Assembly (NCBI GenBank): GCA_016283295.1
Contig: JAEEMQ010000010.1
Coordinates: forward strand, 1-59,332
Length of the DNA stretch: 59,332 bases
From: Alphaproteobacteria bacterium
Lineage (GTDB): Bacteria; Pseudomonadota; Alphaproteobacteria; RF32; CAG-239
Reading direction: 5' to 3'
Within the stretch, counting starts at the first letter, position 1, and each line of letters starts with the position of its first letter. The notes beneath the pieces are model-generated. The model searched no databases, was not told the DNA's origin, and saw only the letters and a program-made list of their open reading frames with translations. Position numbers and translations under genes: made by a program. Shown here one piece after another: positions 19,551 through 38,683 of this stretch.

Positions 19551-22500
19551 ATGGATAATCAGGAAATATGGAAAAAATTAAAAGAGCAGGCGGCAACACA
19601 AGGGTATGTCGATTTAACTGACTTTCGGAAGCTGAATACCGAATTTGTTAAAGAAGAATTGCCGAAAGATGCGAAGATGCTGGCGGCGGTAATGAAGACG
19701 GTCGATATTGCCACCTATGCCGATACGGAAGAAGGTGTTGATGAATACAAATTGTCTTATATAGTAAGAGCCGCCAAGGAATTTTGCGATACCGAGAAAA
19801 TTTTTAGCGAATCGCTGCAAAAAGACGGCGGTAAAAATTTGGAAAAACAGTTGCGCTACATAGCAAAAGCACACAAAGGAGCTTCTGTTTTTAGCAGCCG
19901 CATGGAGTACTATATCGAGAATAATCCGTTTTTAGATAAGGTGTTGACGGAGAATCCGGATATAGTCGAAGGTTTGAAAAAATATTTTGATGTGACACGG
20001 AGCGGGTTGACCGGCAGTAAAAATAATTGTAACAGATTGGAAGAATATTATATCAAGTCTGTTGCCACGATTGCCGACAGCGGAAGATTTGCTCCGTATT
20101 TTGACGCTTATGCGATAATCAATTCTACAAGAGAATTAAACGAAAAAGAGAAGTTTTTGCGTCGTATGCAAAATGAGGCTGTCGAGAACGGCGGAAAGCT
20201 ACGGCCGTTAATACTTAAAGAATATATGGATGAGGTTTTGGAAGCATTGCCGGAGCATCCGGAGATTCTGCCGATAATCGAAAAGAGCTTTGCTGTGGAC
20301 AGTAAGGATAAGTATATAGAAGAACATGGTTATAAATATGGAGAAGAAGCATACGAAGCAGATAAAAAAGCGGCCGCGGCAATTTTGCTCTTTGGGAAGC
20401 TGAAAAAGTTTTTCAATGTGGAAAAAGCTTGGGCTTACGGTGAACCCGGCGGCAAAGAGAGGCTGGCTTATGATGATAAGGAGCGAATTGTCAATTTATA
20501 TTTGCAACGCGACGATTTGAACATATATCAGCTGCGAGCCTGTCTGGCAATCAGCCGAAGTGCGACGGAATGGGCAATTAGGAACCATCCGGAAATCAAA
20601 GAGCGCGTCAATAAAATGCTGGAAGGCGCCCAATCGTATAAGTTGTTGCAAAGCTTTGCCAACGACTCTACCCTGAACAAGTTTTTTGATATGCACGAAA
20701 AATTCGAGCGCTCGGCCGAGGCAGTGCAACAGCTGAGCGGCAAGGAAGTGTATACGATTTTTACCACGCCGGAAAGCGAAATTCCGGAAGCGGCGGAGAT
20801 GAACCGGCAATACCGGGTAATTAAAGAATATCTCGAACAAACTAAGGAATTGAGCAAACGTAGTTTTGATGCCGATTTGTGTTATACCGGTTTTCGTAAA
20901 GACGAACGTTGGTACGAAAACGGCGGGCTGAACGAGTTTTTGCAAGATGCCGGCACCTTTAAGGGTGCGCCGGAAATAACGCAAATGGTCGATGAATGTG
21001 TCGGGCGGATTTTTGCTCACTATATCTATAATACAGAGGGCAAAAAATCGCGGTTTTCCTACATGAGCACCAGCGGAATTGAGAAGTTTGCCGAGAATAT
21101 GGAAGAAGAAGTAAAGGCCGACCCGGATTCGTCTAAGGCGCAGTTTTATTTGAAGTACGCTCCGATAGTGTTGGACCAGTACGGATCCGGTATTTATAAA
21201 GGGGTGGCTCAGGTTTTGTTGCCGGAAATGGCGGAAAGAGGCCGGTTTGACGTTTGCAAACAAATTTTTACGGGGATGAAACAGACGGACGGATATTACA
21301 GCGGTGCCAACACTTGGTGTACTTACAATATGCGGGAAGTGCTGTCGTCCGCGGAAACCGAAAAGCCGCTGTTTAAGTTTTATTTGCAAAACGCCAAAGA
21401 ATTTTGTTCGAGCATCGACCAATATTTGGATTTTGCCGCGGTACTCATCGGCAAGGATATGAACGCGCATCCGGAAATTACCGCTCAATTAGGCAAAGAA
21501 ATCGGCGAGATGTATAAAGAAATGAAGCCGAAAGATCCGCAAGAATGTGCCGATAAACTGGCGCGGATTTATCAATATTATCCGGCGCCGGAATTTGCCG
21601 AGATTATTGACGAGAGGAGCAGATCTTTGGAGCTGACGGAAGAAAATTTGTGCAAATATTACACCAACTGGCAATGCACCGGTATGAAGAGTTTCGAATT
21701 TGCGGTGGAAAACATTTTGATTGATATGAAAAAGTTTGTTTATAAACCGCAGGACGGTATTGATTATAAGCCGCTGTTGGAGCGACTTAAGCAGTCCGAT
21801 ATCAAGGAAATAGAAGTGCGTAAGCTGTTGCCGTCGCAAGATACCGATTTTGCCCTGAGCGGTTATAAAACGCTGGAAAGGATACACTTTAATTGCGTGG
21901 GCAAAATCAATGCCGAGGCGCTGTTTGACAATCCGTCTTTAAAGATAGTTGATAAGGAATACGAAGCGGGAGTTACCGTTAATAATTTGGAAAAACTGTT
22001 TGACGGCGCTTTACCGAGTTTGGAGGAATTCAAACTAAGTCCGACGGTTATACCGGAGCAGGAAGAAGCATTATATAATCTCTTGATGGAACGAAAACCG
22101 GAAAGTTTGCATGTATTATACTACGACTTTGAAAGAGAAAAAGCCGAGAATCTGATGGATAGAAATTTACTGTTAGTGGTGAACAGCCACAAGTTGGATA
22201 CGTATCATAATTCTCAGATGTCGCGTAACGAGGAGTTTATCGGCTTTCATAAAGGCACGAGGTCGCTGGAGCAACGCTACGTATTGGATGACGTAATCAG
22301 GTATAAAAGATTGGTCGAAGCCATATCGGTTATGCCGCCGGAAAAACGGCCGACGCTGCAACAGATGGAGAATACTTTTAATCCCGAAGACCCGGGTAAA
22401 CTGCATGAGCGAATCAAAGAATATTACGGCGAAGACAGATATCCGGAGGTTATACAACGCGTGAATGATTTGTCGAACGGCAAAGAAATTAAATTCAATC

Positions 22501-22871
22501 TTGATTTGCAGCTGGCTTGTCGCAACCATACGCTTATCGAACATCTGCAAGAGTTGCCGCCGGAGAAACGGCCGAAGCTTGCCGAGCTGTTTGAAGTCAA
22601 CAATTTGCGAATTATCAAAGGAAGCATCGCCGATAATTTGATAGGAGAAGACAGAAAGGCCGACCCGAAAACCTGGCAGAAAGTTATTGATATATTGAAC
22701 CCGAGCGACGAAGAACTCCTTGAAGCTGGCAGAACGAAAAAATGTTCCGCAGAAGTAAAGGAAATACTTGACAGAGTGGTTACGGTGCGCAAAGATGTCA
22801 AAGAGGATGCCTTAAAAGCAAAACGGCGTGCCGCTTTCGAAAGCTGGAAGAAAAACAATACAAAAGATTAG
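19551..22871 (+). CDS. Large hypothetical protein, paralog B
   Basis: 1106 aa; AGGAG SD; shared blocks such as ADLCYTGFRKDERW vs ADLCYSGYNKDGRW and LPEMAERGRFDV vs LPEMAKKGRFDV. Confidence 0.85.
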   Translation: MDNQEIWKKLKEQAATQGYVDLTDFRKLNTEFVKEELPKDAKMLAAVMKTVDIATYADTEEGVDEYKLSYIVRAAKEFCDTEKIFSESLQKDGGKNLEKQLRYIAKAHKGASVFSSRMEYYIENNPFLDKVLTENPDIVEGLKKYFDVTRSGLTGSKNNCNRLEEYYIKSVATIADSGRFAPYFDAYAIINSTRELNEKEKFLRRMQNEAVENGGKLRPLILKEYMDEVLEALPEHPEILPIIEKSFAVDSKDKYIEEHGYKYGEEAYEADKKAAAAILLFGKLKKFFNVEKAWAYGEPGGKERLAYDDKERIVNLYLQRDDLNIYQLRACLAISRSATEWAIRNHPEIKERVNKMLEGAQSYKLLQSFANDSTLNKFFDMHEKFERSAEAVQQLSGKEVYTIFTTPESEIPEAAEMNRQYRVIKEYLEQTKELSKRSFDADLCYTGFRKDERWYENGGLNEFLQDAGTFKGAPEITQMVDECVGRIFAHYIYNTEGKKSRFSYMSTSGIEKFAENMEEEVKADPDSSKAQFYLKYAPIVLDQYGSGIYKGVAQVLLPEMAERGRFDVCKQIFTGMKQTDGYYSGANTWCTYNMREVLSSAETEKPLFKFYLQNAKEFCSSIDQYLDFAAVLIGKDMNAHPEITAQLGKEIGEMYKEMKPKDPQECADKLARIYQYYPAPEFAEIIDERSRSLELTEENLCKYYTNWQCTGMKSFEFAVENILIDMKKFVYKPQDGIDYKPLLERLKQSDIKEIEVRKLLPSQDTDFALSGYKTLERIHFNCVGKINAEALFDNPSLKIVDKEYEAGVTVNNLEKLFDGALPSLEEFKLSPTVIPEQEEALYNLLMERKPESLHVLYYDFEREKAENLMDRNLLLVVNSHKLDTYHNSQMSRNEEFIGFHKGTRSLEQRYVLDDVIRYKRLVEAISVMPPEKRPTLQQMENTFNPEDPGKLHERIKEYYGEDRYPEVIQRVNDLSNGKEIKFNLDLQLACRNHTLIEHLQELPPEKRPKLAELFEVNNLRIIKGSIADNLIGEDRKADPKTWQKVIDILNPSDEELLEAGRTKKCSAEVKEILDRVVTVRKDVKEDALKAKRRAAFESWKKNNTKD

Positions 22872-22893: not shown

Positions 22894-24006
22894 ATGGATT
22901 TGAGAGTATATTATAACAGTTACGGGCAAAGAGTGCCGCTGGGAGTTTTGTCTGACCGTGACGAAACATATATTTTTGAGTACGATGCCGGGTTCGAATA
23001 CAGAGAAATCGATGTGTGTCCGTTGTTTCCGTCTGCCGACGTGCGCAAGATAAAAGGCACCAAAAATATGTTGCCGTGTTTGTTTTGGGACTTTTTGCCG
23101 TCGGGGTATAATGCCGAAGTTTTGCATAAGTTGAGTTCAACCTCCATCCCGCTTTTGAAACAGCTGGCAATGCACGGCCGGCGCGGTGTGGGCGCGTTGG
23201 AATTTGAGCCGGAGTTGGCTTACAGTTACGAAAAAATACCGGTTGATTTGGATATGGCGGAAAGCGATATTCGTTTTGAAAATAATTTGAGCCGGCAGTT
23301 TCGTTTGTCCGCCGGTATTGCCGGGCATACGCCGAAAATCTCGGTAAAAGTTTCAAAAGATAAGCAGCAAATTTATGAAGATACCGATGACGAAGGCTTT
23401 GCCGATTGGATAATCAAATTGCCGTCGTCGCAGAAAAATCCGCTGGACGGGGTGGCCGAGTTTGTATATAACAAAATGGCAAAAAAGGCCGGTATTACCG
23501 TGCCGCAGTTTTATTTGTTTAATGCCAGAGCTTCGGCCGGATATTTCGGCAGTAAGCGTTTTGATTATCAAAACGGGATAAAGCGCCATGTTCTTTCCAT
23601 CGGCTCGCTGATGAACAAAAACTATCTGTTTGAAAGAATCTATCTCGGTTATTATACGGATATTGTCAGAAAAATCGCGCCGGAAGAAATCGAAAAGCTG
23701 CTGAGATTGCTGATGTTTGATTTGAAAACCGGCAACGAAGATATACGCGGCGGCGGGATTTCCATGATTTTGACCGAAGAAAATAAGTGGGTTTTGGCGC
23801 CGGCTTATGATTTGGTGCCGTTCTCTTTGGAAAATGATTATACTCCGAAAATGCTGAAGAAAGATTATGAAAAAGATGCCGTCGATGCGCTTATTTATGA
23901 TTTGTGCGAAGCGGCGGAATTTGACTTTGATACGGCCGCAAAAATGATTGAACAGGTTGAGGACGCGGTGGCCGAATATTCTCGCTTGAGTTTAGAGTTT
24001 AAATAA
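22894..24006 (+). CDS. HipA-family kinase-like protein with a degenerate catalytic loop
   Basis: YIFEYD, DFLPSGY, GVGALEFEP, IAGHTPK, WIIKLP, FGSKRFD, GNED, LAPAYDL. Confidence 0.8.
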   Translation: MDLRVYYNSYGQRVPLGVLSDRDETYIFEYDAGFEYREIDVCPLFPSADVRKIKGTKNMLPCLFWDFLPSGYNAEVLHKLSSTSIPLLKQLAMHGRRGVGALEFEPELAYSYEKIPVDLDMAESDIRFENNLSRQFRLSAGIAGHTPKISVKVSKDKQQIYEDTDDEGFADWIIKLPSSQKNPLDGVAEFVYNKMAKKAGITVPQFYLFNARASAGYFGSKRFDYQNGIKRHVLSIGSLMNKNYLFERIYLGYYTDIVRKIAPEEIEKLLRLLMFDLKTGNEDIRGGGISMILTEENKWVLAPAYDLVPFSLENDYTPKMLKKDYEKDAVDALIYDLCEAAEFDFDTAAKMIEQVEDAVAEYSRLSLEFK

Positions 24007-25469: not shown

Positions 25470-26963
25470 ATGACAAATACCAGACCGAATATTTTGGAAA
25501 ACGGAACCCCGTTGTTTTGCGATTTATATCATTTAACCATGGCGCAGGCGTGGTTTTTGGACGGCAAAGCCGAGGAAATCAAAACTTCGGAAGCGTTCTT
25601 CAGAAAAAATCCGTTCGGCGGCAGCTATTTGCTGTGCGCCGGCTTGGGCGAGTTTATACAATGGCTGGAAAATTGGCACTTTACCAAAGAAGATATTGAT
25701 TATCTGCGCCAGGAAAAAAATGCCGACGGCAGCGCGCGTTTTGATGAGCGCTTTTTGCAATTTTTGGACGGGAAAAAGTTAGAGGTCAGTATTAATGCGG
25801 TGCCGGAAGGCGAGTTGGTGTTCCCGAACGAGCCGGTTTATTCGGTAACCGGTCCGACCTGGCAGGTGGATTTGCTGGAGGCGGCGCTTTTGAATGCGTT
25901 TAACTCGCAGAGTTTGGTGGCAACCAAAGCCTCCCGTATGGCGTATGCCGCTTCTCTTGACGGCAAGCAACGCCCGCTGTTGGAGTTCGGTTTGCGGCGC
26001 GGTCACGAGCTCGGCGGATTTTCCGAAACCAGAGCGGCATTTATCGGCGGGGCCACCGGTACTTCCAACACGGCGGCGGCCAAACATTACGGGATTCCGG
26101 ATTCCGGCACCATGGCGCACTCTTTTGTGATGAGCTACGAGAAAGAGGTTGATGCTTTTAAGGCCTTTATGCGCGGCAATCCGGGTAACACCACGTTGCT
26201 GGTCGATACTTATGATACACGCGAGGGAATTAAACATGCCATCGAGGCAACCAAAGAAGTAGGTTTGCCGCTGATGGGAATGCGGGTGGATTCCGGCGAT
26301 TTGGCTTATTGGGCCAAAGAAGCGCGCAAAATGATTGATGCCGAGGGCGATAACCCGCTGTTTGCCAATGTTAAGATGGTGGCTTCCAACGATTTGGACG
26401 AGCATTTGATTGAAAATCTGTTGGTGGTGCAAAAAGCGCCGTACGATATTTTGGCGGCCGGTACTAAACTTGTGACGGCGTATGACACGCCGGCGCTGGG
26501 CGGAGTGTTCAAAACCAAGCAATATATGGGGCGGACGTGTATTAAAATCGCCGAGGGTAAAACTACTATTCCGGGTGCGACCAATGTGGTGCGAATCGTG
26601 CGCAACGGCAAGTTTGAGGGCGATATTATCTGCGGTGCGGACGCAACCGATTTGTTGCAAGAGGGCAAGCTGAGCCGCAATATTACTTCGTATACGCTTG
26701 ACAGCCTGAACGGATTGAAACGCAATTTTAAGGCCGGCGAGCAGGCTTATTTGTTGTTGCAACCGGTGGTAAAAGACGGCAAGGTAATCAACCCGCCGGA
26801 GCTGAATTTGCAAAAATTGCAACAGCGTAGCAAGGAAAATCTGGCGCGGCTCGATGAAGCATACAAGCGTTTGGCTAATCCGCATATTTACGGCGTCGGA
26901 CTGGAAACAAACTTGTATAATATACGGCAAAATCTGATTATGAATGCCGGGAAGGAGAGATAG
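25470..26963 (+). CDS. pncB: Nicotinate phosphoribosyltransferase
   Basis: DLYHLTMAQA, LEFGLRR, GTSN, GTMAHSFV, LLVDTYDT, RVDSGDL, ASNDLDE. Confidence 0.95.
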   Translation: MTNTRPNILENGTPLFCDLYHLTMAQAWFLDGKAEEIKTSEAFFRKNPFGGSYLLCAGLGEFIQWLENWHFTKEDIDYLRQEKNADGSARFDERFLQFLDGKKLEVSINAVPEGELVFPNEPVYSVTGPTWQVDLLEAALLNAFNSQSLVATKASRMAYAASLDGKQRPLLEFGLRRGHELGGFSETRAAFIGGATGTSNTAAAKHYGIPDSGTMAHSFVMSYEKEVDAFKAFMRGNPGNTTLLVDTYDTREGIKHAIEATKEVGLPLMGMRVDSGDLAYWAKEARKMIDAEGDNPLFANVKMVASNDLDEHLIENLLVVQKAPYDILAAGTKLVTAYDTPALGGVFKTKQYMGRTCIKIAEGKTTIPGATNVVRIVRNGKFEGDIICGADATDLLQEGKLSRNITSYTLDSLNGLKRNFKAGEQAYLLLQPVVKDGKVINPPELNLQKLQQRSKENLARLDEAYKRLANPHIYGVGLETNLYNIRQNLIMNAGKER

Positions 26964-26966
26964 GCG

Positions 26967-27746
26967 ATGGAAAAACTGTGGCATAAATTGCAAGACGGTT
27001 TGCGCCAATATTGCGCCGAAAACGGCTTTAATAAAGCTATTCTCGGGCTCTCCGGCGGGATAGATTCGGCGCTGACCGCGGTGTTGGCAGCAGATACGTT
27101 GGGCGGCAAAAACGTTACGGCGATTATGATGAAAACCCGCTATACGTCGGATTTGAGCTTGCAAATTGCGCGCGAAATCGCCGAGCTCAATCATCTTGAT
27201 TATCACGAGCTGGATATTGAGCCGTTGGTGCAAGCGGAAATCGATTTTTTGGCGCGGGCGTTCAACGGCGAAGTGCGCGGCATCGTGCAGGAAAATCTGC
27301 AGGCACGTATTCGCGGACAGCTGTTGATGGCGTGGTCTAACCAAAACGGCGGGTTGGTGTTGGCTTGCGGCAATAAGTCGGAGGCGCTGACCGGATATTG
27401 CACACTCTACGGCGACACCTGCGGCGGCCTAATGCCAATCGGCAACGTGTATAAAACGGCGATTTTTGCGCTGGCCGAGTGGCGCAATAAACAGGGGTAT
27501 GCTTTGCCGGCCGCGGTAATTACGCGCGCACCGTCGGCGGAATTGGCGGAGGGGCAGAAAGATGAAGATTCGTTGCCGCCATACGCTGTTTTGGACGAAG
27601 TATTGAAATTGCTTTATGATGAGCAAAAGTCAGTAGCGGAAGCGGTTGCTGCCGGTTTTGATGCGGCTTTGGTCGAGCGTGTGGAAAAATTAATTCGCCG
27701 CTCGGAGTTCAAACGCAAACAGATGGCGCCGGCTTTGGCAATATGA
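26967..27746 (+). CDS. nadE: NAD+ synthetase, single domain (no glutaminase domain)
   Basis: LGLSGGIDSA, ENLQARIRG, GNKSEALTGYCTLYGD, PSAELAEGQKDEDSLPPY. Confidence 0.95.
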   Translation: MEKLWHKLQDGLRQYCAENGFNKAILGLSGGIDSALTAVLAADTLGGKNVTAIMMKTRYTSDLSLQIAREIAELNHLDYHELDIEPLVQAEIDFLARAFNGEVRGIVQENLQARIRGQLLMAWSNQNGGLVLACGNKSEALTGYCTLYGDTCGGLMPIGNVYKTAIFALAEWRNKQGYALPAAVITRAPSAELAEGQKDEDSLPPYAVLDEVLKLLYDEQKSVAEAVAAGFDAALVERVEKLIRRSEFKRKQMAPALAI

Positions 27747-27767
27747 TGTTTCCGAAATCCGTACAAG

Positions 27768-27795
27768 AAAAACGTTCCGCAAGGGACGTTTTTTT
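27768..27795 (+). terminator. Intrinsic terminator of the NAD operon
   Basis: AAAAACGTTCC-GCAA-GGGACGTTTTTTT. Confidence 0.85.
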
Positions 27796-27834
27796 ATGCT
27801 ATAAATTTTGCAGTCGGTCACAAACTTAATTATA

Positions 27835-27863
27835 TTGCAAAACGACAAAAATAGTGCTACTAT
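27835..27863 (+). promoter_or_regulatory. Sigma70-type promoter
   Basis: TTGCAA, 17-bp spacer, TACTAT with extended TG. Confidence 0.6.
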
Positions 27864-27889
27864 GGTGCGAAACAAACAAGGGGAAATTT

Positions 27890-29935
27890 ATGACCGAAGA
27901 AAAAACGCAAAGAGAACGCAATCAGGATATCTTGAATTCATACGACGGGTCGGACATTATGCATCCGCAAGTGATATTGCGCAAGGTTAAGCAAGTCGAC
28001 GGCGATATTCTTGATGATGGATTGTTCGGAGTAAAGCTCAGTTGCTATCGTGTATATGATGCTTATGAGATAATGGACAGGTTACCGGAAGAATATCAAT
28101 GGGCGAGCCGGAGCATTGCTGATTTTATGGATGAATATACAAAGCTGCTGGAGCATCCGACGGAGAGAATACAGTTGGAAGCGTTGGCCAAAAGCGGTTG
28201 CCGGATTTTTATTGAGGACAAATGTTCCTCAACGGACGGAAACGGTAAAAGCGCGGGATATAGCGGACAATCTTCACATAATATTGCGGGAAAACCGGCC
28301 ATTAAGTTGGTGGCATACAGATTCGGTAACAGAACTTTTTTGCACGAGGCCATACATAATTCGGATTTGCGGCTGTGCTGGAGTTATTTCACTAAGCAAA
28401 AGATTTATCAGGCGGCGATTATGATGCTTGACGCGCAAAAAATCCAGTCTTCGCACGGCTATCAAAGCGTAAAAAAACTGCGCCATATTAACGAGGTTTA
28501 TCAAGCCGGCGAAATTTATACCGAAGGCTTGGCCTGGATCGGCTCCATGTCGATGGAAGAATTGGCTCATGAAAAAAATCATATCGGCAAAAACTTAAAA
28601 GTTCTGCATTCTCTGTATACCGAAGCATTGTTGAAAGAGCAAGGGGCGGTGTTGGATTGTTTTCGCTTTTGGCAACCTTCGGCTCATATAGGAAAATTGT
28701 TGGAAACTTATAATGCCAACGGCCAGAAAATCGGCAAAGAGCGCGATAAAATATTAAAACAACAGAAACATCTCTGGGACGAGATGATGAAATTCCGCAA
28801 GGAAATAAATAAACTCAAGGTAAACGGGCTGGAGAGCAAAACATTGTCGCTTTGGGGCGGTTCGTATTATTATTGCCAAACCGGCGGTGTTAAATCGCTG
28901 TTTCCGTTGTATATGGCGCAAGACAAGGCCGACAAAGCATTTCAACAAATTGAAGATGATGAAAAATTGTCGCCGAACACCAAAAAGCGGCGGCATACCG
29001 CAGTATTAAAAGCGTTGTTTAAGGAAATTAAGGCGGGAGATTTGAACGTTCCTTCATTGTTTGCGGAAAAGTTTTTGACCTGCAAGGAATATCTGTATAA
29101 AATGCGTAAATATTATCCGTCTTATGATTATAATGATATGCTTTTCGACTTGTCGCCGAAGGAAAACGAGCCGAAAGGAATCGCCGGACGTAAGCGGCTT
29201 TATGATAATTTAGAAGCTCAGGCCAATATTTTGTATATGCAGATGCATTCCGTTTATAATCTCAAAGAGTGTGCGTTGGCATATTTGTATAAGGCATATC
29301 ACGAATCCGTGCGTTCCGGCGATGAAATGGTCAAGATGGCCATGATGAGCAATACTAGTTCGCTTGAACATAAAAGAGAGTATGTGAAAGACTTGATAAC
29401 CAGAGCGCGGGAAAAAACGTCGCGGCGTATGACAGGGCGTTATGCGGCGGAGGCCTTTATGGGCATGGAATATTTGTTGCAGAAATATAATCTGTCGCGA
29501 AATACGCACGGGGTGTTGGAAGCGGATGATTTGCGGAATTTTTACACTTCGGAGAAAGTCGTCGACGATTTGAAATGGTTCAAAACCAAAGAGAATGCCG
29601 ACGGTTTGTCGCTTGAAACGTATAAGTGTTTTGACGCGGGAATTGTCAGCGATTATTGTTCGCGACCGGCAAGCGCTTTTAAGGCAGAAAGCGGGGATTA
29701 TATACCGAATAACTATAAAAACCAAGACTCACAAAAGGTTGCCCATACGCGCGCCTTGTATGAATTTTTGGCACTGCGGCACGCTTATCAGGCCAAAACG
29801 CATTGCAAGAAGTTTCCGCAGCATTTGCAGTTGCAGGCGTTTATGCCGAACTCCGATTATTACCGACAAATCAGATTTTTGGCGGCACCTCAGGTAATTT
29901 CCGCAAAAGATTCCAAAGATAACGGCGGGAAGTGA
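27890..29935 (+). CDS. Hypothetical protein with a zincin-like HExxH...E motif
   Basis: TFLHEAIHNSD and downstream YTEGLAW; ATG 27890 with AAGGGGA SD preferred over track start 27854. Confidence 0.75.
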   Translation: MTEEKTQRERNQDILNSYDGSDIMHPQVILRKVKQVDGDILDDGLFGVKLSCYRVYDAYEIMDRLPEEYQWASRSIADFMDEYTKLLEHPTERIQLEALAKSGCRIFIEDKCSSTDGNGKSAGYSGQSSHNIAGKPAIKLVAYRFGNRTFLHEAIHNSDLRLCWSYFTKQKIYQAAIMMLDAQKIQSSHGYQSVKKLRHINEVYQAGEIYTEGLAWIGSMSMEELAHEKNHIGKNLKVLHSLYTEALLKEQGAVLDCFRFWQPSAHIGKLLETYNANGQKIGKERDKILKQQKHLWDEMMKFRKEINKLKVNGLESKTLSLWGGSYYYCQTGGVKSLFPLYMAQDKADKAFQQIEDDEKLSPNTKKRRHTAVLKALFKEIKAGDLNVPSLFAEKFLTCKEYLYKMRKYYPSYDYNDMLFDLSPKENEPKGIAGRKRLYDNLEAQANILYMQMHSVYNLKECALAYLYKAYHESVRSGDEMVKMAMMSNTSSLEHKREYVKDLITRAREKTSRRMTGRYAAEAFMGMEYLLQKYNLSRNTHGVLEADDLRNFYTSEKVVDDLKWFKTKENADGLSLETYKCFDAGIVSDYCSRPASAFKAESGDYIPNNYKNQDSQKVAHTRALYEFLALRHAYQAKTHCKKFPQHLQLQAFMPNSDYYRQIRFLAAPQVISAKDSKDNGGK

Positions 29936-29943
29936 TTTTTTAC

Positions 29944-29971
29944 TTGACAAAATATTTAAATGTGCTACATT
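29944..29971 (+). promoter_or_regulatory. Sigma70-type promoter driving the candidate ncRNA
   Basis: TTGACA (29944-29949), 16-bp spacer, TACATT with extended TG. Confidence 0.65.
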
Positions 29972-29977
29972 GAACCT

Positions 29978-30323
29978 GTGATGTTATTATGAAGATACCG
30001 TTTATTTTATGTAATTATCGGACATTCAGTCAGGTTCGTGTTTCTTCCCCCACCCAAAATATAAATACCGGGGATTAAGGAAGACGCACGAGGGAGAGTT
30101 TTAGCACGGTCGGTACCAAAGGAAGGTACTTGTAACCTATACGGCTTGACTTTCTTGCAATGATTTATCGTTGCCTTGTTTCTGATTGTGATGTCCAGTG
30201 CGTGGCTTATTCTTTTATCCGGATTAAAATCCGATATTGGAAATAAAGCCACAAGAAAGTGCCGTTTGCAAAACAAATGGCACGAAAAGTAAACGGCCCC
30301 GCTAAAACGTGGGCCCTTTTTTT
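29978..30323 (+). ncRNA. Unassigned, highly structured ~345-nt RNA
   Basis: Bracketed by a promoter and a hairpin+T run; at least six helices including a 15-bp long-range helix (30020-30034/30181-30196); many G-U pairs that work only on the + strand; no credible long ORF. Confidence 0.65.
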
Positions 30324-30348
30324 ATTTTAAAATATCGCACTTTTTTGT

Positions 30349-30377
30349 TTGACAAAAAGGAAAATAAATGCTACCTT
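30349..30377 (+). promoter_or_regulatory. Sigma70-type promoter
   Basis: TTGACA (30349-30354), 17-bp spacer, TACCTT with extended TG; the track's TTG start is this -35 box. Confidence 0.65.
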
Positions 30378-30417
30378 GATCAGAGTTTATTTATTAGTTA
30401 CAAATTTTTTTCAATTT

Positions 30418-31002
30418 ATGTACAATCCAAACGAAGTTAATCCCTATTTTTTCGGGGATCCTGAAAAAGTTAATGAACTGTGCGAGTTGTTGAAGGATGC
30501 CCGCAACATCGTGGCTCCGGACGACGAGAAGTATTTGTTCAAACCGGAATATCGCCCGGCATTGTTCGAATACCTCAAGCATCATTCCCTACATGAGGTG
30601 AATCAGGGCCTGATGTTCCGTCCCGAGAACGAAGACGTGCTCCTTTTCTTCCTGGAGAACTGGGTTCTGGGCTCAGTGTTCGAGGCTATGCTGTTCGAGC
30701 CGGAGTTCCGCGGTAAGTATCTGATGAAGTACATCGAGTTCCATAACTTTGCGGACCACGACAACGAAATGTTGCTGTGGGGCAGAGGGATGCGCGAGTA
30801 CCGTCGTTTCTACATCAACCAAACGGAATTCCATATCCGCGAGGCTGAGTTGAATCTCTTAAAGCCGGAGAACGCCGAGGACCTGCAAATCTACGTCAAG
30901 AACAAGCGCAGGTTCTTCCGTGACGTCGAGCCGGAGTTCCGCAAGAAGGCGGCTCCCGAGCTGGTGGCTCTGTATGATTTGTACCATAACGCTAAGGCGT
31001 GA
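30418..31002 (+). CDS. Hypothetical protein with ~24-26-aa imperfect helical repeats
   Basis: EKYLFKPEY, GLMFRPEN, EAMLFEPEF, ELNLLKPEN recur; ATG 30418 downstream of the promoter; no SD. Confidence 0.75.
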   Translation: MYNPNEVNPYFFGDPEKVNELCELLKDARNIVAPDDEKYLFKPEYRPALFEYLKHHSLHEVNQGLMFRPENEDVLLFFLENWVLGSVFEAMLFEPEFRGKYLMKYIEFHNFADHDNEMLLWGRGMREYRRFYINQTEFHIREAELNLLKPENAEDLQIYVKNKRRFFRDVEPEFRKKAAPELVALYDLYHNAKA

Positions 31003-31005
31003 CTA

Positions 31006-31050
31006 TATCCCCGAAATGCTGCTTGAATGCCGCTTTCGGGGATAAAATTT
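31006..31050. terminator. Hairpin between convergent genes
   Basis: TATCCCCGAAA...TTTCGGGGATA inverted repeat. Confidence 0.7.
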
Positions 31051-31053
31051 ATA

Positions 31054-31434
31054 TTAATAACAATCGTCGCCGTTGAAATTAAAATCCGTTATAATATTGT
31101 TGCGGATAACGAAAGCGGTTTTGCAATAAAACAACGGCGGCGGCAGCGGCAAACCGTAGTTCGGAACCGCCATGGCGGCATAACTCAGCTCGCCGGCATA
31201 GGGCTGATAATCGTCAGCAACGGGTTGGCTTTCCGCGGAGTAATAAACGGCCAAATAAGTGTTGTCGGCAACCGGAATTATCTGTTGCGGCTGGCCCCAT
31301 GAGCCATAAAGATAAGCGGCGCTTTTGCCGACCGTATTTTCAAGCTTTTCCTGATATGCGGAGCGGGAATAGCCAACGTTTTGACAGGCGGCAACAAGCA
31401 ATATTCCCGCCGACAAATATATGAATTTTTGCAT
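31054..31434 (-). CDS. Hypothetical lipoprotein
   Basis: Lipobox LVAAC; VGKS...L..SWGQP; directly downstream of hflX. Confidence 0.75.
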   Translation of the reverse strand: MQKFIYLSAGILLVAACQNVGYSRSAYQEKLENTVGKSAAYLYGSWGQPQQIIPVADNTYLAVYYSAESQPVADDYQPYAGELSYAAMAVPNYGLPLPPPLFYCKTAFVIRNNIITDFNFNGDDCY

Positions 31435-32752: not shown

Positions 32753-32967
32753 TATTCTTCGGCAATATCCAATGCAACGCTCGGCATAATGGTAGAAACG
32801 GCGTGCTTATATACCAACTGCGTATGGCCGTCGCGGCGCAACAACAAACTTTCTTCATCCTGTGCCGTAATAATGCCCTGAAGCTTAACTCCGTTAATCA
32901 AAAACACGGTAACGGCCACTTTTTCTTCTTTAATATCGTTCAAGAAATCACTTTGTACTTTGTTCAT
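32752..32967 (-). CDS. hfq: RNA chaperone Hfq
   Basis: [26 protein letters not shown]; upstream of hflX. Confidence 0.97.
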
Positions 32968-33114
32968 TATTTTTATCCTTATTTAAAAGTATCTCTGAGA
33001 TTACGATATAAAACTTTTTTGCATAAAAATCCACGATATTTGTACTTTTTTACACGGAATATTTACGATTTTACGCCTAAAATATCAAAAAATACGCAAA
33101 CAAAGGAGGACAAT

Positions 33115-34185
33115 ATGAAAAAAATAATTTTTACCGGCGGCGGTTCGGGAGGCCACGTAACGCTGAATTTGGGGCTGATTCCTTTGTTTATGCAAGCCGG
33201 ATGGGAAGTGATTTACATCGGTTCTAAAACCGGAATTGAAAATGAGCTGATTAAAAAAATTAAGGGTGTGAAATACTATCCGATTGCTACCGGCAAGCTG
33301 CGTCGCTATTTTTCGTGGGAAAATTTTAAGGACGCGATGCGGGTACCGCTCGGGGTGTTCGAGGCTTGGAACATTATCCGCAAAGAAAAGCCGGATGTGG
33401 TGTTCTCCAAGGGAGGTTTTGTATCGTTTCCGGTGGTGTTCGGAGCCTGGCTTAACGGCATTAAAAAGGTTTATATGCATGAATCCGACGTTACGCCGGG
33501 GCTGGCCAATAAAATGTCGTTGCCGTTTGTCGGTACCTTTTTCACGACTTTTGCCGATACGGCCGAATATGTCGGCGATAAGCGCAAGGTGCGTTGTGTG
33601 GGGCCGGTGTTGACCGATCGGCTGGATAACGGCGATGCGGAAAAAGCCCGCGATATGTGTAATTTTAAGGCGGATAAGCCGGTGTTGATGTTTGTCGGCG
33701 GCTCGCTCGGGGCCAAAAGCATCAATAATGCGGTGATAAAAAATTTGGAGGCACTGCTTGAAAAATATCAGATTATTCATATCTGCGGTAAGGGGCAGAC
33801 GTCACTTGCGCGTTGCGAAGGTTATGCGCCGTTTGAGTTTGTGGATAAGGAATTTAAGGATTTGATGGCGCTGGCTGATGTGGTAATTTCGCGCTCCGGC
33901 TCCAATGCCATTTTTGAGCTGTTGAGCCAGAAAAAGCCGATGCTGTTGGTGCCGCTGCCTTCAACTTCGAGCCGCGGCGAGCAGGCTCTCAATGCCAAAT
34001 CGTTCCAAAAACAGGGCTTTGCCGAAATTTTACGCGATGATAAGGTGGAAGCCGATTTGCCGGAGGCGATTGAAAACGTGTTCAAATATCGGCAGGATTA
34101 TATTACCAATATGGAAAATGCCGAGTGGAAACGCACTACCAATCAGGAATTGTTTGAGGAAATTTGTAACGATGCGCAAGTATAA
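33115..34185 (+). CDS. murG: Undecaprenyl-PP-MurNAc-pentapeptide GlcNAc transferase
   Basis: MKKIIFTGGGSGGHV, TGKLRRY, FSKGGFVS, HESD..PGLANK, GGSLGA, SRSGSNAIFE; ATG 33115 with AGGAGG SD (track start 32803 overlaps hfq). Confidence 0.9.
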   Translation: MKKIIFTGGGSGGHVTLNLGLIPLFMQAGWEVIYIGSKTGIENELIKKIKGVKYYPIATGKLRRYFSWENFKDAMRVPLGVFEAWNIIRKEKPDVVFSKGGFVSFPVVFGAWLNGIKKVYMHESDVTPGLANKMSLPFVGTFFTTFADTAEYVGDKRKVRCVGPVLTDRLDNGDAEKARDMCNFKADKPVLMFVGGSLGAKSINNAVIKNLEALLEKYQIIHICGKGQTSLARCEGYAPFEFVDKEFKDLMALADVVISRSGSNAIFELLSQKKPMLLVPLPSTSSRGEQALNAKSFQKQGFAEILRDDKVEADLPEAIENVFKYRQDYITNMENAEWKRTTNQELFEEICNDAQV

Positions 34186-34879
34186 AAATATTGTTATTCT
34201 GACCGGTGCCGGTATTTCCGCCGAATCCGGGTTGGCGACTTTTCGCAGCGAGGACGGATTGTGGAACAAGCATCGGGTAGAAGATGTTGCTACCATTGAA
34301 GCGTTTTATCGCAACCCCGATTATGTGCATGAGTTTTATAACGAAATGCGGCCGGAGCTGTTTAACGCTCAGCCTAATGCCGCGCATAAGGCAATTACAA
34401 CCCTGCAGGAAAAATACCCGGCCGAAATCAGCGTGGTGACGCAGAATGTCGATACATTGCACGAAAAGGCCGGCAACAAAAACGTATATCATATTCACGG
34501 ACAGATTAATCAGATGCGTTGCTTAAATTGCGGCCATGTGTTTGAAACCTGGGGCGAATTTTCTTCGGAAGACGTGTGCGAAAATTGCGGCCTGGCGGCA
34601 ACTTTGAAGCCGAATATCGTGTTTTTCGGCGAAGATTTATTATATATGGATAAGGTCGATGATTTATTAAGGACGTGTGATTTGTTCTTATCAATCGGCA
34701 CTTCGGGGGTGGTATATCCGGCGGCCGGATTTGTGCAAATAGCCAAGATGTTCGGGGCGGATACTTACGAATTTAATATGGAAAAAACCTCAAACAACCT
34801 GATGTTTGACGAACATATCTACGGTCCGGCCGGTACGACGTTGCCGGAGTTCGTGGAAAAATTGCTGGCGGAAAAATAA
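34172..34879 (+). CDS. cobB: NAD-dependent deacylase (Sir2 family)
   Basis: LTGAGISAESGLATFR, TQNVDTLHEKAG, HIHG, CxxC...CxxC, IGTSGVVYPAAG; ATG 34172 overlaps the murG end. Confidence 0.93.
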   Translation: MRKYKNIVILTGAGISAESGLATFRSEDGLWNKHRVEDVATIEAFYRNPDYVHEFYNEMRPELFNAQPNAAHKAITTLQEKYPAEISVVTQNVDTLHEKAGNKNVYHIHGQINQMRCLNCGHVFETWGEFSSEDVCENCGLAATLKPNIVFFGEDLLYMDKVDDLLRTCDLFLSIGTSGVVYPAAGFVQIAKMFGADTYEFNMEKTSNNLMFDEHIYGPAGTTLPEFVEKLLAEK

Positions 34880-36716: not shown

Positions 36717-37118
36717 TCAAAAATTAAAAATCTTACTCAAAGCATAGTCCAGCTCGACATCTCCGTACTTGTCCGTAACCTTAAAATCGTTGCGGTCGAT
36801 AATCAGATATTCGCCCAGTGTGTAATCGTAACAAAGCAAATCAAAATCGTTGTATCCGAGCAAAATGGTGTTTTCCGGCTTTTTCATCTGCTCGTTTTTA
36901 TCAATGATATCCAAATCGTCGTCAACGGTGGCGCCGAAAAGATAAGAACCGTCGAACTTCATCCCGTTATAATGGTGAAGAAAATCGGCATAAGACTTCG
37001 GAATCATGCCCAGTCCCATATTATGCAGAACTTTTTGGGCGATAATCAGCGCCTCGGCTTCCAGCTTTTCGCCGTGAGCAAACTTTTTGCCCTTGATTTC
37101 ATCCAGAAATGTATTCAT
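36717..37118 (-). CDS. SUKH (SMI1/KNR4, YrhA-like) immunity-type protein
   Basis: IPKSYADFLHHYNG...LFG, ILLG...LLCYD...GEYLIIDR; start overlaps the upstream stop. Confidence 0.75.
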   Translation of the reverse strand: MNTFLDEIKGKKFAHGEKLEAEALIIAQKVLHNMGLGMIPKSYADFLHHYNGMKFDGSYLFGATVDDDLDIIDKNEQMKKPENTILLGYNDFDLLCYDYTLGEYLIIDRNDFKVTDKYGDVELDYALSKIFNF

Positions 37119-38683
37119 AGCTCATTTCCTTTATTCTTTTTGGTCAGCTTCAGATTTTTCCCCGCGGCCTTGTTGATGCTCTTTTGAGCTTTGGAATCAG
37201 GCACGATCCAATCGGTGAAAATCTGTAAATCTTCGGCGGAAACGTTGATTTTATCTTGCAACATACCAATCAGGTTGCGGCGCTCGTTGCTCAAATCGCG
37301 CTTAGAATATTCAATGTGGTAGCGGTCAGCAATTTCCGGAATATTGTTAAAGCGCTGTAGTTGCATTTCATAATAGTTAACCACGTTTTGCTTATCTTGC
37401 TTAATGCGTTTTTGCAAACTGCTGTTTTTATCCCATTCGCAACTGATTTCAAAATTAAAGCCGTCAAGCAGCGCCACATTTGAATCATACATATTGATAC
37501 GGGAAAAATACATTTCGTTGTTTTTTGCAACTTCGTCGGTATCGTCAAACCCGTGGAAATAAGCGCGGTGCATTTCGTGCTCAACCAACACCAGGTTGGT
37601 CGGGTAGTTAACTTTGGCCAGATAATCGTCGTCGTTGGCAAATTTTACGGCATTTTTATGATGCACCTCAAAGCACGGCATATCGTCTTTGCTCAGCGGC
37701 ATGCCGTTTTCGTCGCGGGCAACGAGAATATTCTCTTTATCGGCCAAAAACATTCGGTCCATCAGCTCTTCCGGTATTTTATCGCCGACTTTATAGTCTT
37801 CGCTGTAATACGGGGTGTTGCGCAAATCTTTGATAATGCGCGGAGTGAAATTGATTTCCGTCACTACCAGGGTAGCAATATCGCAGCAACCGCTTTGCGC
37901 CATACGTCGACACAGCGAAACAACCTTGCGCTCGTCCAAACCGTTGGCAATCAGCCGATTATACAAGGTTTTGCCTTGTTCGCGCATAAAACTCTTAACA
38001 AACTTCTTTTTATAGCCGGTTTTAAGGAACAATGCTTTCATCGATTCCGGGGTCTTGGCAAATGATTTATGAATAACATCGCAGAAGTCGCTGACCGACA
38101 TTACCTTGAGCGCATCGGGATTAATGCCGTTTCTGTACATATAGCGGCGAACATTCGGGGCAATCGTGCGGAAGCTCTCAAACTGGTTGAAAACGCGCCA
38201 CATCGGCGATTGCGATAAATCATAATCTTTCAATCTGAATTTGCCGCGGTTTTCGTTTTTGCAGAAAAACTTGTAATACGAGCTGAGTTCGTGTTCGCGA
38301 CGGGCATCAATGGAGCCGTAACATTCCATCCGCACCAGCTTTTTTTCGTCATCGGACAGCGGATAATAAATGTTGCCGGCATCATAAAAAGAACCGCACA
38401 TCCAACCGATCATCTCGAGGCAATCGGCGCTTAAATCAAGCAATTTCTCCTGCATTTTGGCCGGAGAAATCGTGACTTTGTTATAGGTAATGTCGTGCAA
38501 CAGGTCAACCAGGGCGATTTGCCGCGGATAGGCCAGATTGGTAAAATTTTCCTGAAAATCGATGGGGTTGCGCAGAGTTTCCCATAAGTCGGCATTATCC
38601 TTGATAAATCTGCCGGTCAGCTCAGAGGCGCTCGGTAGAAAATCAAAATGTTTTTCGGCGTATGTTTTTTTTCTGCGGCTCAT
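37115..38683 (-). CDS. Protein with internal HNH endonuclease motif (putative nuclease toxin)
   Basis: FEVHHKNAVK...VNYPTNLVLVEHEMHRAYFH. Confidence 0.7.
   Translation of the reverse strand: MSRRKKTYAEKHFDFLPSASELTGRFIKDNADLWETLRNPIDFQENFTNLAYPRQIALVDLLHDITYNKVTISPAKMQEKLLDLSADCLEMIGWMCGSFYDAGNIYYPLSDDEKKLVRMECYGSIDARREHELSSYYKFFCKNENRGKFRLKDYDLSQSPMWRVFNQFESFRTIAPNVRRYMYRNGINPDALKVMSVSDFCDVIHKSFAKTPESMKALFLKTGYKKKFVKSFMREQGKTLYNRLIANGLDERKVVSLCRRMAQSGCCDIATLVVTEINFTPRIIKDLRNTPYYSEDYKVGDKIPEELMDRMFLADKENILVARDENGMPLSKDDMPCFEVHHKNAVKFANDDDYLAKVNYPTNLVLVEHEMHRAYFHGFDDTDEVAKNNEMYFSRINMYDSNVALLDGFNFEISCEWDKNSSLQKRIKQDKQNVVNYYEMQLQRFNNIPEIADRYHIEYSKRDLSNERRNLIGMLQDKINVSAEDLQIFTDWIVPDSKAQKSINKAAGKNLKLTKKNKGNEL

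Follow-up and report, generated by a model that had tools for sequence, protein, structure and literature searches.

A probable new structured RNA gene and its link to a zincin-like protein gene in rumen Alphaproteobacteria

Introduction

The locus at positions 29944 to 30323 (+ strand) of contig JAEEMQ010000010.1, from an alphaproteobacterial assembly (GCA_016283295.1; lineage RF32, CAG-239), raises the question of whether it is the gene for an RNA and, if it is, what kind of RNA this may be and with what partner it might act. The whole stretch of DNA analysed, 59,332 nt in length, is called the window. An initial annotation, made from the sequence alone, had described the locus as a stand-alone, highly structured RNA of about 345 nt that resembled no family recognised by its author. 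Here we present a computational analysis indicating that the locus very probably encodes a real, new structured noncoding RNA and that, together with the orphan protein gene directly upstream, it probably constitutes a two-gene unit.

Window coordinates refer to the genome that contains the window (G000). The homologue set comprises six RNA copies from metagenome-assembled genomes (MAGs) of related rumen Alphaproteobacteria (G000, G017, G035, G015, G062, and G001), of which G015, G062, and G001 are referred to as the long clade.

Results

A conserved promoter and terminator enclose the RNA

The RNA locus is flanked on one side by the stop codon of the upstream open reading frame (ORF; 29935) and on the other by the promoter of the following gene (TTGACA, 30349-30354). 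Consensus scans recovered the promoter that had been claimed for the RNA, TTGACA and TACATT with a 16-nt spacer and an extended TG, and also the claimed terminal hairpin with its T run. The raw numbers of such sites were close to those expected by chance, with 9 promoter-like sites compared to 5.5 ± 2.5 in shuffled sequences and 4 terminator-like sites compared to 3.2 ± 1.8; it is because the two signals are conserved in the homologues that they carry weight. Upstream of the RNA, TTGACAAAAT, nine bases, and then GTGnTAnAnT were kept in all six copies, and a GC-rich hairpin followed by a T run was found at the 3' end in all six as well. Transcription is predicted to start near 29978. Across the homologues, the predicted length of the RNA ranges from approximately 327 to 493 nt, with the three more distant copies at approximately 466 to 493 nt. 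The RNA is present as a single copy in the G000 genome.

A common promoter style was observed in three consecutive units (27835-27863, 29944-29971, and 30349-30377), each of which has TTGACA or TTGCAA, a spacer of 16 to 17 nt, and TGn followed by TAnnnT. A T run precedes two of these three promoters, and over 17 nt the RNA promoter shows 88% similarity to that of the next gene (repeat D8).

The 5' domain folds into four covarying helices

The + strand between 29975 and 30323 had a predicted folding energy of -115.7 kcal/mol, compared to -85 ± 5.8 kcal/mol for 100 dinucleotide shuffles (z -5.28), none of which folded as well; the - strand of the RNA region gave a z value of -3.97. Helices A to F, which had been identified by eye, and the terminal hairpin were all present at the same positions in the minimum-energy fold, including the GGTACC/GGTACT tip of helix C. 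This fold also contained a possible long-range helix that would close the molecule (29998-30008 with 30285-30296). The initial annotation had further noted that G-U pairs fitted the + strand only, and many such pairs were indeed found in the pair table of the six-sequence alignment.

The six homologues were realigned with R1, a covariance model built for the 5' domain (189 positions, 54 pairs). In this alignment of helices A to D, compensatory changes, that is, changes on both sides of a pair, were found in 22 of the 54 pairs, and 93.1% of the cells were standard pairs; neither value was reached by any of 500 shuffles. When the 3' partners were moved by one to three columns as a slid control, 38.8 to 47.7% of the cells were paired and both-side changes were found in 3 to 7 pairs. 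An independent run with MAFFT and RNAalifold returned the same helices, with compensatory changes in 24 of 61 pairs. These covariation figures lean toward structure, since R1 was fitted to the same six sequences and the six are kin.

Hairpins E and F, like the closing helix, are supported only by folding energy and partial conservation. The closing helix is invariant in G000, G017, and G035, and the other three copies show weak A/U pairing only; because it did not exceed the shuffled leaders used as a control (z -1.0 to +0.7), it is retained here merely as a possibility. In the long clade, an extra domain of approximately 130 nt separates hairpin E from the 5' domain, and the interior of hairpin E also differs in these copies. 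In G062, the hairpin F region is doubled in tandem (L026:3936-4025; two units of approximately 45 nt), which shows that large changes are tolerated in the 3' half of the molecule.

The inner portion of helix C is also conserved in sequence. Its 5' side, TTTTAGCACGGTC, is identical in all six copies, and its 3' side, CTATACGGCTTGAC, differs by a C-to-A change in G062 and by a G-to-A and a C-to-A change in G035. The invariance of these inner loops suggests that they serve in recognition, either of a protein or ligand or through a tertiary contact. One candidate contact was rejected: the pairing of the helix C loop (30098-30112) with the terminator loop (30294-30308), designated I9, was attributed to chance, as it is not kept in G017 or G035.

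The locus encodes no conserved small protein

A gene for a small protein, in place of an RNA gene, might be proposed for this locus, given that the G000 region contains ORFs of 29, 28, and 38 amino acids on the + strand and one of 89 amino acids on the - strand. The six homologues have none of these ORFs in common. The 29-amino-acid ORF (29989-30078) is missing even from the 91%-identical G017 copy, in which the 28-amino-acid ORF (30160-30246) is shortened to 14 amino acids; furthermore, the indels among the homologues are not multiples of three, and the substitutions preserve base pairs instead. The earlier statement that no credible ORF lies within the locus is therefore upheld, and we regard the small-protein explanation as extremely improbable.

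The RNA matches no known family

Comparison with Rfam, which the initial annotation had named as a check on its own reading, matched no family: at the gathering score, Rfam 15 gave no match in the whole window, with models that included RNase P, transfer-messenger RNA (tmRNA), 6S RNA, signal recognition particle (SRP) RNA, ROOL, GOLLD, OLE, raiA, HEARO, ribozymes, and riboswitches. A permissive Rfam search of 29850-30450 returned only eight matches, all with an E value of at least 2.4 and far under the thresholds, and detected no known self-cleaving motif; an Rfam search of four homologue loci found nothing on their RNAs. ARAGORN found no tRNA or tmRNA in the window. The housekeeping RNAs are each present as one clear copy on contigs other than that of the window, namely, RNase P RNA on C47 (269.6 bits), a two-piece alphaproteobacterial tmRNA on C28 (217.4 bits), and 6S RNA and SRP RNA on C52 (61.8 and 60.5 bits, respectively). 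Both lines of evidence agree with the earlier remark that the locus lacks clean signatures of RNase P RNA, tmRNA, and SRP RNA, and they extend to 6S RNA.

The neighbourhood of the RNA was also searched for the hallmarks of RNAs from mobile elements and defence systems. Tandem Repeats Finder (minimum score, 30) returned no repeats in 27700-30450, and no CRISPR-like repeats were found near the RNA. No reverse transcriptase domain was present in the 18 neighbouring ORFs scanned, which argues against a retron msr-msd RNA, and the absence of RuvC, HNH, and DEDD nuclease or recombinase domains from the neighbouring ORFs (Pfam and NCBIfam) argues against an IscB, TnpB, or Cas guide RNA and against an IS110 bridge RNA. 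The gene that follows the RNA encodes a 194-amino-acid orphan protein in G000, G017, and G062, thioredoxin in G035, and other proteins in G015 and G001; moreover, the downstream gene has its own promoter, both in G000 and at the empty site described below. Because the downstream gene differs among genomes, the RNA is not a riboswitch or a cis-acting leader.

The proposal that the locus encodes a diverged form of an already described RNA of housekeeping or mobile-element origin (RNase P RNA, tmRNA, 6S RNA, SRP RNA, a retron, an IscB or TnpB guide, or a riboswitch leader) would draw on its size and degree of structure only. In the light of the Rfam and ARAGORN results, the housekeeping copies elsewhere in the genome, the neighbours devoid of reverse transcriptase, TnpB/IscB, and Cas domains, and the variable downstream gene, it merits next to no credence. 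Our literature searches, which were not exhaustive, found no description of this RNA. The initial interpretation of the locus as a large orphan structured noncoding RNA is thus supported, within the reach of the tools used, by the absence of an Rfam match, the covariation, and the lack of a conserved ORF, and we rate the RNA as a new family outside any known system, with a narrow range.

The RNA is inherited together with the upstream protein gene

When 50 genomes of the genus were searched with the protein encoded upstream of the RNA, it was found in six, the same genomes that make up the homologue set. Strong R1 matches (E ≤ 2e-37) were found in exactly these 6 of the 50 genomes and in none of the 44 that lack the protein, and in all six the RNA is directly downstream of the protein gene on the same strand. 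BLASTN against 60 relatives gave two real matches, in G017 (91% identity) and G035 (72%). R1 had no match in 150 other genomes that form an even sample of the class or in 127 genomes from 19 other genera that form a sample of the order. When all GTDB species genomes were scanned for an exact pattern, five contigs were found, all titled as Alphaproteobacteria or Proteobacteria MAGs, three of them explicitly from the rumen, which are taken to be the five relatives already found. The pattern scan of the JGI metagenome contigs and of the IMG/VR viral contigs found no match, and neither did BLASTN of the RNA against plasmids and phages. A weak R1 match in G019 (C10:11401-11532, L042; 18.5 bits; E value, 0.042) is probably noise, because no homologue of the protein was found in this genome.

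The best argument for treating the two genes as a single unit came from an empty site. BLASTN of 26900-31100 against the otherwise collinear site in G066 (L057) joined window position 27795 directly to 30341, so that in G066 the terminator of nadE, which encodes NAD synthase, abuts the promoter of the 194-amino-acid protein gene that follows the RNA in G000. G000 has 2,545 extra bases, which contain precisely two genes, that for the protein, promoter included, and that for the RNA, complete with promoter and terminator; the two therefore form one indel. The edges of the unit are T runs (27789-27795 and 30341-30346), with a direct repeat (D5) at the two terminator ends. A search for terminal inverted repeats or a target duplication at these ends found only the T runs and the terminator-like similarity of D5, and no mobility mechanism was identified. 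The surroundings of the unit differ between genomes: NAD synthase is encoded upstream in G000 and an autotransporter upstream in G062, an outer membrane barrel gene is nearby in G015, and thioredoxin and L17 genes follow in G035.

These results qualify the earlier description of the RNA as a stand-alone gene, because the RNA gene and the upstream protein gene together make up a two-gene unit. Similarly, the flanking genes, whose conservation the initial annotation had left to be checked, are constant in the six genomes as far as the upstream protein gene is concerned, but the outer flanking genes vary.

This pattern of inheritance bears on the possibility that the RNA is autonomous, working as a ribozyme, by binding a ligand, or by self-assembly in the manner of ROOL, GOLLD, or OLE, with the protein gene as a mere passenger on the islet. 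RNA-only assemblies of GOLLD, ROOL, and OLE are the subject of a recent preprint (bioRxiv 10.1101/2024.12.08.627333). The RNA resembles large orphan RNAs such as ROOL, GOLLD, OLE, raiA, and HEARO in its size (345 to 490 nt), its multihelix junction with covarying stems and invariant loops, its own promoter and terminator, and its patchy distribution; in addition, the protein family can occur without the RNA, as in G426. However, none of the covariance models of those families matches, no known self-cleaving motif was detected, and the RNA has a much more restricted range (a single genus, in which 6 of 50 species genomes carry it). Its link to one protein gene is also tight, since in the samples of the genus, class, and order described above no strong match to it occurred in a genome that lacks the protein. 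We therefore consider an autonomous RNA unlikely.

The candidate partner protein is an orphan with a zincin-like domain

The upstream gene encodes a protein of 681 amino acids whose true start is taken to be the ATG at 27890, because the upstream GTG frame contains a stop codon in G017. Its promoter is recognisable at five of the six homologous loci, and similarity stops upstream of it. The protein had no match in Pfam or NCBIfam, none of five neighbourhood proteins, the partner protein included, was matched by PADLOC, and PHROGs gave only weak matches (E value of at least 0.00024). Its relatives numbered 13 among 5.8 billion proteins and 18 among 1.84 billion cluster representatives; none has a functional name, "hypothetical protein" being the only label that any source attaches to them.

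Three regions can be distinguished: an N-terminal zincin-like domain with an HExxH motif (residues 152 to 156), a conserved and very basic middle region (residues ~221 to 330), and an all-helical C-terminal domain. H152, E153, and H156 of the motif are invariant in 18 of 18 aligned relatives, and D159 and E212 are near-invariant, as is also the case in a closer set of 10; the protein thus has the zinc-binding motif of zincin metalloproteases, HExxH with a further ligand downstream. The model of the N-terminal domain (predicted local distance difference test score, 77) had its best fold match, a weak one, in PPEP-2 (6fpc_A; Z, 5.3; root mean square deviation, 3.5 over 96 residues). Most of its top 50 fold neighbours were zincin proteases, all of them weak (Z < 6), and the best Foldseek E value was 0.1. 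A language-model look-up, which serves as a lead only, placed the protein in a "putative metalloprotease" cluster (0.90). The middle region has an isoelectric point of 9.2 to 10.2 in 10 of 10 close homologues. With the C-terminal domain, a wide VIA-align search returned generic helical bundles only (all Z ≤ 6.9) and was uninformative, and Foldseek with the whole protein found nothing at an E value of ≤ 0.1.

One remote relative, P0026, matches the Pfam family eCIS_core/DUF4157 (PF13699) exactly at its HExxH motif (E value, 2.3e-6). The partner protein resembles members of this family in having an N-terminal HExxH domain, a long linker, and a C-terminal domain; it differs in that neither it nor any of its nine closest relatives (0 of 10) matches PF13699 even at an E value of ≤ 10, and no match was found anywhere in the genome. 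Zincin-like N-terminal domains of the DUF4157/eCIS_core family are described as occurring in proteins linked to contractile-injection-system toxins (PMC8213781).

Expression and transcript architecture

A search of public sequencing runs listed six, three of which contain part of the sequence; one of these three is an RNA library. This library, a bovine gut metatranscriptome (X1), contained one 173-nt contig over 30063-30175, a 95 to 99% similar variant of the RNA interior with loose ends that are G017-like. In two runs whose library kind is not stated (X2 and X3), contigs of 155 to 168 nt were 100% identical to 30099-30266. No run covers the flanks of the RNA, and a further run (X4) was empty over 29300-31000; missing coverage was not counted as differential expression. 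These data, which bear on the metatranscriptomic check that had been proposed for the locus, are a weak hint that the RNA is transcribed.

A scan found no terminator between the stop codon of the protein gene and the RNA, which implies that the RNA is probably made both on its own and as the 3' end of the protein mRNA. Since the RNA promoter has a consensus -35 element, compared to TTGCAA for the protein gene, the sequence suggests that the RNA is made in excess.

The expected read-through into the RNA would equally suit a cis-acting structured 3' untranslated region (UTR) of the protein mRNA, which might act as a stabiliser, a terminator region, or an element of translational feedback, with the internal promoter unused. 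It is difficult to reconcile such an element with a consensus -35 and an extended -10 sequence that are kept at fixed spacing in all six homologues despite diverged surroundings, and that are nearer to consensus than the promoter of the protein gene itself. A domain of approximately 190 nt with 22 covarying pairs also exceeds what protection from exonucleases would need. We consider this explanation very unlikely.

The same arrangement recalls the enterobacterial small RNAs (sRNAs) DapZ and MicL, 3'-UTR sRNAs that have their own promoter within or just after the upstream gene. As in these cases, the RNA gene begins a few bases past the upstream stop codon, has its own conserved promoter, and uses the terminator of the upstream mRNA, and its invariant stretches, in predicted internal loops, are possible seeds. 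It can be envisioned, therefore, that the RNA is a trans-acting base-pairing sRNA that regulates other mRNAs and has no tie to the neighbouring protein. However, at 345 to 490 nt, with a covarying four-helix junction and conservation that is structural, it is several times larger than the DapZ and MicL type and goes far beyond typical seed-pairing sRNAs. There is likewise no seed-target signal: complementary sites in the genome occurred at chance levels (42 and 10 sites with at most two mismatches; expectation for a 14-mer, ~10.6), with none at the translation starts inspected. Strict co-inheritance with one accessory gene would, moreover, be unexpected for a global regulator, and we judge a base-pairing sRNA of this kind to be rather unlikely.

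Two specific candidates for base pairing were rejected. An antisense interaction with the translation start of the neighbouring gene was, by RNAduplex, no better than the pairing obtained with randomly chosen segments of 70 nt, 25 from each genome (z -0.8 to +3.2). Two genomic copies of ACGGCTTGAC with one mismatch were considered as targets; both are same-sense, and the copy at C28:10962 looks like an ordinary -35 region.

Features of the locus and other genes in the window

The features of the two-gene unit are listed in Table 1.

Table 1. Coordinates of the protein gene, the RNA gene, and their elements in the window
Feature	Position	Strand	Description and basis
Accessory unit (protein gene and RNA gene)	27796-30340	+	2545 bp; absent from the otherwise collinear G066 site
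Protein-gene promoter	27835-27863	+	TTGCAA, 17-nt spacer, TGn-TACTAT; read from the sequence
Orphan protein gene	27890-29935	+	681 amino acids; ORF directly upstream of the RNA
RNA-gene promoter	29944-29971	+	TTGACA, 16-nt spacer, TGn-TACATT; consensus scan
RNA transcript (predicted)	29978-30323	+	~345 nt; ends deduced from promoter and terminator
Conserved 5' domain	30017-30199	+	Four helices; covariance model R1 (174.5 bits), covariation, consensus folds
Helix A	30020-30034/30181-30196	+	Closes the junction; fold and covariation
Helix B	30036-30048/30079-30091	+	Fold and covariation
Helix C	30092-30100/30148-30156	+	GGTACC/GGTACT tip; fold and covariation
Stretch TTTTAGCACGGTC	30099-30111	+	5' side of inner helix C; identical in 6/6 homologues
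Stretch CTATACGGCTTGAC	30137-30150	+	3' side of inner helix C; near-invariant, three differing positions
Helix D	30157-30174	+	Fold and covariation
Hairpin E	30202-30252	+	GTGGCTT...AAGCCAC; minimum-energy folds of all six, consensus folds
Hairpin F	30259-30283	+	GTGCCGTTTG/CAAATGGCAC; variable; folds
Possible long-range closing helix, 3' strand	30285-30296	+	Partner 29998-30008; fold prediction
Intrinsic terminator	30298-30323	+	Hairpin 30298-30313 and seven T at 30317-30323; consensus scan

Several other genes in the window were recorded. Between 24223 and 27746, four NAD salvage and synthesis genes lie on one strand, encoding a cytidylyltransferase-like protein (NMNAT type), an isochorismatase family protein (nicotinamidase type), a nicotinate phosphoribosyltransferase, and NAD synthase; a Sir2 family gene (33992-34879) lies after this run. 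An ORF for a MurG-like glycosyltransferase (32803-34185) overlaps the Sir2 family ORF by approximately 190 nt on the same strand, and the true starts of these ORFs are probably further downstream than listed. A HipA-like kinase gene (22894-24006; Pfam HipA_C, E value of 2.5e-25, and Couple_hipA) may encode the toxin of a toxin-antitoxin system. Large ORFs that encode proteins of 1,106 and 522 amino acids (19551-22871 and 37115-38683 [- strand], respectively) had no Pfam or NCBIfam match, and large orphan proteins seem to be common in this small genome of 1.65 Mb.

Discussion

In this study, we have asked what the RNA might do for the bacteria that carry it, and the tight association with the upstream gene provides a lead. 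We postulate that a strong sigma-70-type promoter of its own drives transcription of the RNA gene and that the transcript ends at the intrinsic terminator. The unit, in this view, is gained or lost as a whole, and its genomic surroundings vary from species to species within one genus of rumen Alphaproteobacteria with small genomes. The RNA may then act in trans by binding the neighbouring protein, whether to inhibit it as an "antidote" or to serve it as a scaffold or cofactor, and the contact could be made between the strongly basic middle region of the protein and the invariant loops of helix C. Among the explanations considered, we favour, although tentatively, the one in which the RNA is a protein-binding partner or regulator of the zincin-like protein and the two are functionally coupled.

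Several observations weigh against this interpretation. The contact between RNA and protein is putative, and scans against domain libraries found no recognised RNA-binding domain in the partner protein. The covariation comes from six sequences only; the 3' half of the RNA is poorly supported, and within the long clade compensatory changes were seen in 5 of 54 pairs. Because the six carriers are kin, the co-occurrence of the two genes does not represent six independent events. The link between protein and RNA is not universal: G426, a 92% complete genome from another genus, encodes a homologue of the protein (E value, 8.5e-155), yet the gene for this homologue is immediately followed by a convergent gene and R1 matches nowhere in the genome, and the gene for a remote relative of 915 amino acids, P0024, is followed by a protein gene, with no such RNA. 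Finally, the contig from the RNA library may stem from DNA carry-over, and the ends and abundance of the transcript are deduced from sequence signals.

The organisation of the unit is reminiscent of the type III toxin-antitoxin systems ToxIN, CptIN, and TenpIN, in which an antitoxin RNA with tandem direct repeats, from which single units are processed, and a terminator lie upstream of the gene for a ToxN/AbiQ-type endoribonuclease. Like these systems, it is a compact accessory unit of one protein gene and an adjacent structured RNA, with a patchy distribution among close relatives, and the RNA is probably more strongly expressed than the protein gene, to judge from their promoters. Unlike these systems, however, the RNA has no tandem repeats and lies downstream of the protein gene with no intervening terminator, and the partner is a zincin-like protein, not of the ToxN/AbiQ type, that has no Pfam, NCBIfam, or PADLOC match.

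A bolder proposal can be made in two forms, and we regard it as rather doubtful. The unit might represent a new protein-RNA pair in which the large, ornate RNA, not a repeat array, is dedicated to a zincin-like protease or effector and provides it with an antidote, with immunity, or with an obligate cofactor; alternatively, it might carry a new self-assembling or catalytic RNA on a 2.5-kb islet that moves without a recognisable recombinase.

Large structured bacterial RNAs with good covariation are rare, and RNase P, OLE, ROOL, and GOLLD each proved to be unusual in chemistry or architecture. The significance of the present RNA is bounded by its occurrence in one genus of uncultured rumen Alphaproteobacteria and by the six sequences available. 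Within these bounds, the compact core of approximately 190 nt with invariant loops, co-inherited with a candidate partner, makes the role of the RNA directly testable. To our knowledge, although our literature searches were not directed at this question, there is no precedent for the control or equipment of a protease by a structured RNA; if the bolder proposal of an RNA dedicated to the protease is true, the unit would be a protease-RNA counterpart of the type III toxin-antitoxin systems.

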